Positions 7,248 through 32,959 of a stretch of 64,000 nucleotides of DNA are shown here, piece after piece (the first letter of the stretch is position 1; each line of letters starts with the position of its first letter). Both the position numbers and the translations under genes were made by a program. Under the pieces are notes generated by a model that worked only from the letters and a program-made list of their open reading frames with translations, made no database searches and was not told the DNA's origin. The stretch comes from Candidatus Angelobacter sp. (GTDB lineage Bacteria; Acidobacteriota; Terriglobia; Terriglobales; Acidobacteriaceae), in the NCBI GenBank assembly GCA_036522115.1, contig DATDGL010000059.1, positions 7,896-71,895 on the forward strand, in the 5' to 3' direction.

Positions 7248-7577
7248 CGAGGGGTATTGCCTACTTGGCAAGCGTTCGTGGTGCCGACGTGATAGCCAAC
7301 AAATTATCAACGTGAGTGCTCAGTTCCACCACCATCTGATAATCGCGAACAGTAGATTCCCCAAATCTGTTAAGCACCCCTGCGTTGCGGCCTGGTCCCG
7401 CTTGCTTTTGTGGTGGCCCGAATGGTCGTTGCATTCTATTTTCCTTTCCCAAATTGGCTTACTGAGCACATCCTAAACTAAGACAAGGTGTAACAAATTT
7501 GTAGCTGTCCAAAACCTCTGGGAATCTAAGGTTTCAATATGTCGGTGGCGCTGTCACCGGCGGCAAGGCGGATGTAT

Positions 7578-8000
7578 TTAAATGGGAACTCTCTCAAGCG
7601 GAACGATGAACTGAATGCCATCCACCTTTTTTCTCTGGAGTCTGGCATCGTTGGTGACGAAAAGGTCAATGCCAGCGTCGGCAGCGCAGGCAAGCTGAAT
7701 GGCATCGGGCGGGCGAAGAGCACGGTCCGAGCGGAGCGAAGCGTAAATCCGCGCCGCTTTTGTATCGAAGGGAAGGATGAGTGCGGCGGCTGTAATAGCT
7801 GTCTCATACCGCGAGCATAGTTGCATGTCTCCCTGTTCCGTTGGCTTGACGAGGATCTCTCCCAACGTGAGCGTGGACGTCAGCAACTGGTCGCCGCGCG
7901 CCAACATTTTCGTGCGGAGAGCTGCTGTTGCCTTCGATAGCGGGCCATAGTCTTCAAACAAGTAGATGAACAGATTGGTGTCCCAGAAGATGCGGCTCAT
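7578..8000 (-). CDS. vapC: PIN-domain toxin VapC
   Basis: 140 aa with FWDTNLFIY, TLGEILV, PPDAIQLACA and FVTNDARL. There is an ATGA overlap with the upstream gene. Confidence 0.85.
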   Translation of the reverse strand: MSRIFWDTNLFIYLFEDYGPLSKATAALRTKMLARGDQLLTSTLTLGEILVKPTEQGDMQLCSRYETAITAAALILPFDTKAARIYASLRSDRALRPPDAIQLACAADAGIDLFVTNDARLQRKKVDGIQFIVPLERVPI

Positions 8001-32020: not shown

Positions 32021-32506
32021 TTAGCTGTCCTTGTCCAGATATTCTCCAGGAATATCGTCCTCAGAAACCTCATGCGTTCGAACTGGTTGCTCATCCGCGT
32101 TGTCCGCAGCTTCCACACCGCTCACGGCGTCGGCCTCAAATGAGTTTCCTTCCTCCAGCAATTCTTCAACACTCTCTGAATCCGGGCCTCTGCGCCGGGA
32201 CAATCCCTGAAGGTCTCCTGATTGTCCGCCGACATCTGATCCGAGCCCTCGGCGTGATGACGGTCTGCCTACGGGAAAGCTTTTTTCGCGAACCTGTCTG
32301 GTCGGCGCGGTTGCAGTCCTGTTTATAGCTGTTTTCCCGCTGGCCATGGTCTTCTTTTTGGCTGTTACCTTCTTCGGGGCCGGTTTCTTTTTCGACGACT
32401 GTTTTTGCGCAGCCGCCTTTTTCAAAGCCGGTTTCTTCCTGGCTGTACTCTTTCGGGGAGTGGTCTTCGACGGTTTCTTCCTGGTGATTTTCTTCTTAGC
32501 AGGCAT
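32021..32506 (-). CDS. Lys/Ala/Pro-rich histone-H1-like basic protein with an acidic C-terminal tail
   Basis: The N-terminal ~55 aa are KKKITRKKPSKTTPRKSTARKKPALKKAAAQKQSSKKKPAPKKVTAKKK. The C-terminus is rich in E/D. Low-complexity, so coding status is less certain. Confidence 0.5.
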   Translation of the reverse strand: MPAKKKITRKKPSKTTPRKSTARKKPALKKAAAQKQSSKKKPAPKKVTAKKKTMASGKTAINRTATAPTRQVREKSFPVGRPSSRRGLGSDVGGQSGDLQGLSRRRGPDSESVEELLEEGNSFEADAVSGVEAADNADEQPVRTHEVSEDDIPGEYLDKDS

Positions 32507-32633
32507 ACCGGAAGTCTACCACCGGTATACGTGTTTCAGTAAAGCGGCTGGACCCTTACCAAAAAACGCGAAAATGGCCACTCTTTCCCGCGGGTGCGGT
32601 CTGAGTGGCCGTCGGCAATTTACAGGGAATTGG

Positions 32634-32822
32634 CTACCCGATGCAGTTGACCTCGGGAGGCTTGCACGGAAAAGGGCCGTCCAACTGGCAGGTTAATGGA
32701 TTGAAACTGCACACCGGGAGATTGCTGCGTTGGAACGAGCCGCTCACGCATTCCAGTTCCTGCGGACTCAACTCCCGCGCGCCCTTGCGGCTCAGCACTC
32801 TGTCGTCGTTTGGGTTCGACAT
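32634..32822 (-). CDS. 62-aa peptide with a double-glycine-type leader-like N-terminus and a 4-Cys C-terminal region
   Basis: AAGGAGG lies 4 nt before the ATG. The leader is MSNPNDDRVLSRKGARELSPQELECVSG, followed by SFQRSNLPVCSFNPLTCQLDGPFPCKPPEVNCIG. Confidence 0.5.
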   Translation of the reverse strand: MSNPNDDRVLSRKGARELSPQELECVSGSFQRSNLPVCSFNPLTCQLDGPFPCKPPEVNCIG

Positions 32823-32959
32823 GGTCCCTCCTTGACTCGAAGAAATGGTCTACGCCGATCTGTTTCTGATGTCGACGCGGAGGCAGTATAACACGGTGCC
32901 GCCGACATTCCGGTACGACTCAAAACCACACTGATCCGGACAACCCATAATTTAGCTGG

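Follow-up and report, generated by a model that had tools for sequence, protein, structure and literature searches.

The 62-codon reading frame at positions 32634-32822 (minus strand) of the window, by which we mean the whole 64,000-nucleotide stretch of Candidatus Angelobacter DNA that was analysed, probably encodes a trans-encoded orphan of a graspetide-type precursor family of this genus, predicted to be matured by an ATP-grasp ligase and an exporter and to end as a disulfide-knotted peptide; we put the probability of this reading at roughly 0.6. At the genomic level, the family as a whole is linked with a single dedicated C39 exporter and with ATP-grasp ligases of the microviridin type. 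Neither graspetides nor double-glycine peptides are new as classes; what is new is the family itself, which has no Pfam or NCBIfam profile and no name in the databases.

The gene consists of 62 codons followed by a TAG stop, as given by the list of open reading frames and by the sequence, and its product reads MSNPNDDRVLSRKGARELSPQELECVSGSFQRSNLPVCSFNPLTCQLDGPFPCKPPEVNCIG. A Shine-Dalgarno sequence, AAGGAGG, can be read directly at 32827-32833 (minus strand), where the 4-nt spacer GACC separates it from the ATG at 32822, and in this respect the stand-alone frame with a near-perfect ribosome-binding site described in the original prediction was found as described. Just past the stop codon, the computed fold contains a terminator-like hairpin (32559-32610, minus strand; GGCCACUC...GAGUGGCC, then AUUUUCGCGUUUUUU), made up of a stem-loop at 32610-32576 with a G+C-rich stem of 8 bp and an inner stem of 4 bp, followed by a T-run at 32575-32559. 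Its centroid energy is -26.8 kcal/mol with a z-score of only -1.8, and it was not picked up by a consensus terminator scan because its loop is long. At the other end, about 60 nt 5′ of the ATG, a sequence reading points to a possible extended -10 element, TGTTATACT (TGnTATACT; 32885-32893, minus strand), which may be the sole promoter-like feature of the gene; a consensus scan found no full sigma-70 promoter upstream. A sigma-54 promoter was also considered and rejected by eye, as GGCAC is there and the -12 GC is missing.

The gene lies mid-contig, more than 30 kb from each contig end, flanked upstream by genes for a BON-domain protein and a TonB-dependent receptor, and downstream by those for a Lys-rich H1-like protein and a phosphoglucomutase. 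No processing gene was found among these immediate neighbours and no exporter or modifying enzyme within the window. The H1-like protein directly downstream (32021-32506, minus strand) is Lys/Ala/Pro-rich with an acidic tail, and its gene is kept in 49 of the 79 genus genomes at 44-76% identity, in differing neighbourhoods and without conserved synteny; in an empty-site comparison at the peptide locus, the contig of the closest relative stops inside this gene. The peptide itself matches no Pfam profile at E up to 1 and no NCBIfam profile at E up to 10. A database search nevertheless returned 13-14 orthologues at 65-85% identity, and comparison with the two for which DNA was at hand gave a dN/dS of 0.18-0.24 (Nei-Gojobori), or 0.09-0.30 for the leader part alone. 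The orthologues are stand-alone genes in unrelated neighbourhoods, with no adjoining enzyme in any of three contexts, and the peptide gene is therefore an autonomous unit. Searching with the core alone recovered orthologues in just two other species of the genus, so the exact core is rare. The frame is thus confirmed as a real, conserved gene that looks translated, its translation signal being joined by purifying selection.

The leader (residues 1-29; 32736-32822, minus strand) was delimited by position-specific conservation in 126 unique family members taken from public data. Its C-terminal block, L18 S19 x x E22 L23 x x V26 x G28 S29, has the form of a canonical double-glycine export signal (L-12, S-11, E-8, L-7, V-4, G-2, S-1), with hydrophobic residues at -4, -7 and -12 (V26, L23, L18), glutamate at -8 (E22), glycine at -2 (G28) and a small residue at -1 (S29). 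The proposed resemblance to leaders of the LS..EL..(I/V).GG type is accordingly borne out at positions -12, -11, -8, -7, -4 and -2. Across the 126 members, position -12 is Leu in 123, -11 is Thr or Ser in 114, -8 is Glu in 124 (with a hydrophobic residue at -7), -4 is Val or Ile in every case and -2 is Gly in 125, while -1 is Gly in 69, Ala in 36 and Ser in 13, which makes the G-S that had been remarked upon in place of G-G a regular variant of the cleavage site. G-S cleavage sites are documented among double-glycine peptides (PMC12219008). As far as sequence can tell, the likeness of this leader to double-glycine signals is beyond chance. Upstream of the export signal lies a second, family-specific block, R8-V-L-x-R-x-G-A-R-E17 (R-22 to E-13), which is essentially invariant across the 126 members and fully kept in the peptide and its orthologues; Cys25 of the leader is not conserved. 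The consensus register puts G28-S29 at -2/-1, and the predicted cut therefore falls after S29, which leaves a predicted core, F30-G62 (32637-32735, minus strand), that is further delineated by invariance in the 14 orthologues and by homology to ligase-adjacent cores. This core is 33 residues long, and not 34 as first proposed.

Paralogous leaders of this kind, which the original prediction had suggested looking for, were found at every level of comparison. In the peptide's own 6.2-Mb assembly, tblastn and regular-expression searches followed by an HMM gave 30 family members with the leader pattern M..N..NRVLxRxGARELTxEExxxIxG(G/A/S), each 45-62 aa long and with hypervariable cores; all score at least 51.7 bits against the family HMM, the next match falling to 17.9 bits, and the peptide was the second-best match to the leader search. 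Purine-rich, Shine-Dalgarno-like sites precede all of the 29 paralogues listed. A different double-glycine-like leader, GIEELSEEELxAVAG, occurs in two reading frames of the same genome (C28:7001-7045 and 7573-7617); at only 17-18 bits against the family HMM, these are probably members of a different peptide family. Genus-wide, 878 leader genes were counted in 79 species genomes, 64 of which carry the leader in 1-34 copies (median 12.5), and 542 database clusters are related to the peptide family, the best 120 of these relatives having no Pfam domain and nearly all being unnamed or called "hypothetical protein". Of 119 other genera in the same taxonomic family, none yielded the leader, and among 228 genera of the phylum it turned up in one genus other than Ca. 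Angelobacter.

No processing or export gene had been expected nearby, and the machinery does lie elsewhere: the C39 and ATP-grasp matches are all on other contigs. Three C39-domain matches were found in the genome (on C19, C66 and C36), none of them on the peptide's contig, C59. The one on C19 (C19:29612-31786) is a 724-aa PCAT with Pfam C39, ABC_membrane and ABC_tran domains, in which Cys24 and His97 take the positions of the catalytic C21 and H99 in an alignment with PCAT1 (E 1e-94); it appears to be the cognate exporter, with a C39 peptidase domain predicted to be active. The PCAT-type exporter that had been proposed as a target of search is thus present, and it is followed by 11 tandem family genes (C19:27727-29625), the first of which overlaps its stop codon, and these in turn by a microviridin-type ATP-grasp ligase (C19:26549-27742). 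The ligase matches the profiles TIGR04187 (E 5e-46), MvdD (E 9e-37) and MvdC (E 2e-32), and its closest solved structures in the PDB are CdnC, AMdnB, MdnC/MdnB and PsnB; it scores under all curated NCBIfam cut-offs and is therefore no named equivalog. No second ligase of this kind was found in the assembly, a MAG of 252 contigs; since 5 of 19 dispersed paralogues are located within about 1 kb of a contig end, the MAG may lack further ligase genes. The peptide gene (C59) and the ligase gene (C19) do not cluster in the manner of a graspetide locus. No membrane-fusion or outer-membrane partner was found next to the C19 exporter. After the ATP-grasp gene and on the same strand come genes for a BlaI-type repressor, a 978-aa BlaR1/M56 sensor-peptidase and a DUF4097 protein (C19:22026-26342; L004 26-4342).

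Lanthipeptide and radical-SAM enzymes, which had been named as candidates, do exist in the genome (on C66, and as four LanC-like genes), but the partner of the family is an ATP-grasp ligase instead. The C66 cluster (C66:18000-32145; L005) is a second, unrelated RiPP-type cluster with a radical-SAM/SPASM protein, a tryptophan halogenase and an NHLM-type HlyD fragment, together with a full-length C39 PCAT, a second ABC protein and a DUF7005 protein. The LanC-like genes lie at C114:53687-57004, C43:6417-9632, C65:28116-33001 and C102:45202-47610; two of them are LanM-sized, and one class I-like LanC locus has a 58-aa candidate precursor (MEAKPKKLVLNQETLRNL...CPNGVCPSHHPPHC).

Across the 79 genus genomes, leader and ATP-grasp ligase, each present in 64, agree in 77 (Fisher p 2e-13, relatedness ignored), and an orthologue of the PCAT (at least 69% identity, typically one intact copy per genome) occurs in 58 of the 59 genomes with at least two leader genes and in none of the 20 others (agreement 78/79, p 8e-18, relatedness again ignored). 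No phyletic association of the leader family with LanC-like enzymes was found in these 79 genomes: LanC-like genes occur in 44, including 5 that are leaderless, and are absent from 25 of the 64 that bear the leader, among them the leader-rich G150, G180, G163, G165, G182 and others. G180 and G186 have no LanC-like gene, yet carry four-Cys orphans. Since leader, ATP-grasp ligase and exporter co-occur and no LanC link is seen, the family is best described as one of graspetide precursors with a double-glycine leader. The same conclusion is suggested by gene order in relatives, where family arrays stand immediately 5′ of one to three ATP-grasp genes, sometimes with the PCAT gene first.

Genomes that have the ATP-grasp ligase and lack a PCAT orthologue carry one precursor each, of the "..ILGKGN..SPDE" type, in which RVLxRxxAR is kept and G-K replaces G-G. 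This pattern suggests that the leader is divided between the two proteins: the N-terminal block is a putative docking element for the ATP-grasp enzyme, and the C-terminal block probably serves the exporter. The single-copy variant, ..RVLGRRxARxLSxEExQKxLGKGNQxTxHMTSxxxPDE, is found at G191:C2:3204933-3206308 (L016) and also in L020-L030, directly 5′ of ATP-grasp in genomes without a PCAT orthologue; another instance, in OY970299.1, carries the label Verrucomicrobiae, although a genome search places a matching genome in the same acidobacterial family.

The core of the peptide is built on the scaffold C38-S-F-N-P-L-T-C45-Q-L-D48-G-P-F-P-C53-K-P-P-E-V-N-C60. The four cysteines to which attention had been drawn are invariant in the 14 orthologues, as are S39, F40, N41, T44, D48, G49, P52, K54, P55 and P56, and the core as a whole (LPVCSFNPLTCQLDGPxPCKPP..C) is conserved more strongly than the leader. 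It is homologous to the CTFDP..T...DGD..C cores that adjoin ATP-grasp genes, whose common pattern, hT.hC(T/S)F(D/N)P...DGD...C, comprises a pair each of hydroxyl residues, Asp and Cys. The genome's own C19 operon encodes ..HTFNCTFDPRTRNFDACDV, with 50% identity to the peptide over 48 aa, and two cores bridge the remaining distance: TLCSFNPITRKIDGDLHEC, of the Cys type, sits inside a ligase cluster, and TNVCSFNPITCQIDGDCIVPPACGS has four Cys and keeps the DGD. The arrangement of reactive side chains fits that of a graspetide, with Thr/Ser toward the N-terminus of family cores (mean relative position 0.38) and Asp/Glu toward the C-terminus (0.74), and with at least one acidic residue in all 126 cores and at least two in 122. 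In the lineage of the peptide, the upstream Thr has been lost along with the second Asp of the canonical DGD (DGP instead), and single-acid cores occur within the family only in the four-Cys subfamily. What is left is S39, T44 and D48, invariant in 17 of 17 four-Cys members, D48 being the only acid invariant throughout the subfamily, and at most one ester is therefore possible. With K54 also invariant in the orthologues, the sequence offers conserved candidate donors (S39, T44, K54) and a candidate acceptor (D48) of the kind that graspetides have.

In an alignment of 24 related cores, C38 and C53 are invariant (24/24), and C45 and C60 covary perfectly, both being present in 17 and both absent in 7, which argues for disulfides C38-C53 and C45-C60; an even number of cysteines is found in 111 of the 126 family cores (88%). 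Between the two disulfides and the thioether-type cross-links that had been offered as alternatives, this covariation and the even-number bias favour the former, and the absence of LanC-like genes from many leader-bearing genomes tells against the latter. An AlphaFold2 model built on the 24-sequence alignment reached a pLDDT of 59.5 and contains only a leader helix (20-26) and a small hairpin; it is a weak model, so the disulfides are not assignable from it.

Isolation from enzyme genes is not peculiar to this one gene. In two well-assembled genomes whose family genes were sorted by position, orphans account for about 15-25% of them (3-4 of 21 and 8 of 34). The four-Cys core ACNYDPVTCRVISGDCSDVPPACLGQ stands alone in 4 of 6 well-assembled genomes sampled. 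On these counts, the four-Cys, single-Asp subfamily, the peptide included, would typically be encoded away from the enzymes. Searches by tblastn and blastp found no ATP-grasp or PCAT homologue near the four-Cys paralogues on the genome's own C4 and C129 or on G132:C159. The last of these (G132:C159:3746-7544; L036) holds three family genes of the Cys type, including two four-Cys ones, beside a 421-aa reading frame, and no ligase lies near them on the 12 kb read.

The maturation pathway that we propose can be outlined as follows. The precursor would be made from its own transcription unit, and its RVLxRxGARE block would dock on the ATP-grasp ligase encoded at C19:26549-27742, which may add a single omega-ester from Ser39 or Thr44 to Asp48. 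The exporter (C19:29612-31786) would then recognise LSxxELxxVxGS, cut after Ser29 and move the 33-aa core across the inner membrane, where the four cysteines would oxidise to the interlocked disulfides C38-C53 and C45-C60 that covariation suggests. This would give a compact, Pro-rich, knotted peptide that works outside the cytoplasm, and by analogy with other graspetides and double-glycine peptides, its most likely role is that of a protease inhibitor or of a peptide in interbacterial competition or signalling.

A point against the ester in this outline is that the upstream Thr and the second Asp are gone, so that the ATP-grasp enzyme may no longer act on this peptide at all. Carried to its end, this counterpoint yields a disulfide-only peptide resembling a class II microcin or bacteriocin, in which the family leader is kept just for cleavage and export and a second disulfide has replaced the esters. 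Such a peptide would have precedent, since class II microcins with both double-glycine signals and disulfides are known (PMC12219008), and it would account for a subfamily whose members have the family's only single-acid cores and are usually encoded apart from ATP-grasp genes. Against it stand Ser39, Thr44 and Asp48, invariant in every four-Cys member, and the RVLxRxGARE block, which tracks the ATP-grasp ligase even in genomes that have no exporter and which the peptide and its orthologues have retained in full under the low leader dN/dS given above. We regard the disulfide-only reading as a serious minority possibility, and a graspetide-type orphan as the better account.

A peptide whose cysteines are held in thioether cross-links (lanthionine or sactionine), installed by some lanthipeptide synthetase or radical-SAM enzyme from another locus, is far less plausible. 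The genome has the four LanC-like genes and the C66 radical-SAM/SPASM cluster with a PCAT of its own, and class II lanthipeptide precursors also carry double-glycine leaders. However, LanC-like genes are missing from leader-rich genomes, the two with four-Cys orphans (G180 and G186) included, and occur in five without leader genes; no LanC-like contig carries a family gene, the lanthipeptide locus on C65 has a different precursor of its own, and the strong bias toward even cysteine numbers fits disulfides. A lanthipeptide precursor was rejected on the phyletic pattern, since 25 of 64 leader genomes do without the LanC/LanM enzymes on which it would depend, and lanthionine-type thioethers are disfavoured for the same reason. 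Equally improbable is a leftover of a duplicated precursor gene, decaying or silent and with no functional product, which the isolation from every processing gene and the want of a sigma-70 consensus promoter might suggest, but which an intact frame with a strong Shine-Dalgarno sequence and a terminator after it, an almost invariant core in 14 orthologues, a dN/dS of about 0.2 and the retention of related four-Cys orphans in several genomes make very unlikely, purifying selection being hard to square with silence.

How the peptide, read as a graspetide-type orphan, relates to established systems can now be considered. With the graspetides (microviridin MdnA with MdnB/MdnC, marinostatin, chryseoviridin CdnA/CdnC, plesiocin PsnA/PsnB), it shares a ribosomal precursor made up of leader and short core, a conserved leader motif 5′ of that core, Thr/Ser ahead of Asp/Glu within it, and a partner ATP-grasp ligase homologous to CdnC, AMdnB, MdnC/MdnB and PsnB; C39/ABC exporters are also the family most often linked to graspetide loci (PMC8939145). 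It differs in that the Angelobacter leader has RVLxRxGARE in place of the PFFARFL and Phhx(1,2)h motifs, the ligase lies below every curated NCBIfam cut-off, the peptide gene is unclustered, its core has four Cys and one invariant acid, and the family runs to as many as 34 genes per genome. The leader of the Xanthomonas citri "cluster 208" (Makarova et al. 2022, PMC8939145), ..GRVLARVLSRDEVGQVAGG, resembles RVLSRxGARELSxxExxxVxGG, a likeness of a short motif only, and this cluster comes from ATP-grasp loci that also encode a double-glycine peptidase (PMC8939145); its cores are unrelated, and it is a small, single-copy family of Gammaproteobacteria. The Angelobacter family goes unmentioned in the papers searched, among them the graspetide survey (PMC8939145) and the description of the genus.

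With the double-glycine peptides exported by PCATs (PCAT1, ComA/ComC, CvaB/colicin V, class II microcins), the family shares the leader register LSxxELxxIxG(G/A/S) and an exporter with catalytic Cys and His, whereas its leader, with a further module at the N-terminus, is about 29 aa long instead of 15-18 aa, no membrane-fusion or immunity gene is adjacent, and the family is tied to a modifying ligase. Class II microcins in particular are unmodified or siderophore-tagged peptides of 5-10 kDa with a 15-18 aa GG signal and genes for a PCAT, a membrane-fusion protein (MFP) and immunity; here the GG signal and the PCAT are present, but the leader is longer, the mature peptide would be about 3.5 kDa, and MFP and immunity genes are not adjacent. 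A parallel in genome organisation is found in the prochlorosins of Prochlorococcus and Synechococcus, where many ProcA precursors with double-glycine-type leader removal are served by a single lanthipeptide synthetase, ProcM. Both systems have a conserved leader, hypervariable cores and many genes per genome for few enzymes, some clustered and many dispersed. The differences lie in the chemistry (predicted ATP-grasp esters and disulfides, not lanthionines, with no LanM association), in the leader family, which is not Nif11/NHLP, and in the phylum.

This parallel leads to a broader and more tentative suggestion, which we consider possible though on balance doubtful: that Ca. Angelobacter makes combinatorial graspetides in the manner of prochlorosins, with one exporter and one to six ligases for dozens of cores from genes in arrays as well as from single, scattered ones, and that the four-Cys subfamily represents a stepwise exchange of esters for disulfides, in which enzyme-made ester staples would be replaced by disulfides formed spontaneously or by Dsb proteins. 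If few enzymes do mature dozens of cores, the result would be a natural library of constrained peptides held by esters and disulfides, and the promiscuous pair of ligase and exporter would be of practical interest. At issue are about 878 genes, spread over 79 species of a single abundant soil genus whose biosynthetic richness has been remarked on before, and an annotation that starts from enzymes would miss those family genes that, as is the case for this peptide, lie far from any biosynthetic enzyme. The graded series from two esters and one disulfide to one or no ester and two disulfides makes the switching of RiPP cross-links testable, and, if the suggestion is true, the four-Cys peptides would represent an RiPP scaffold that is evolving away from its modifying enzyme while keeping the leader that docks on it.
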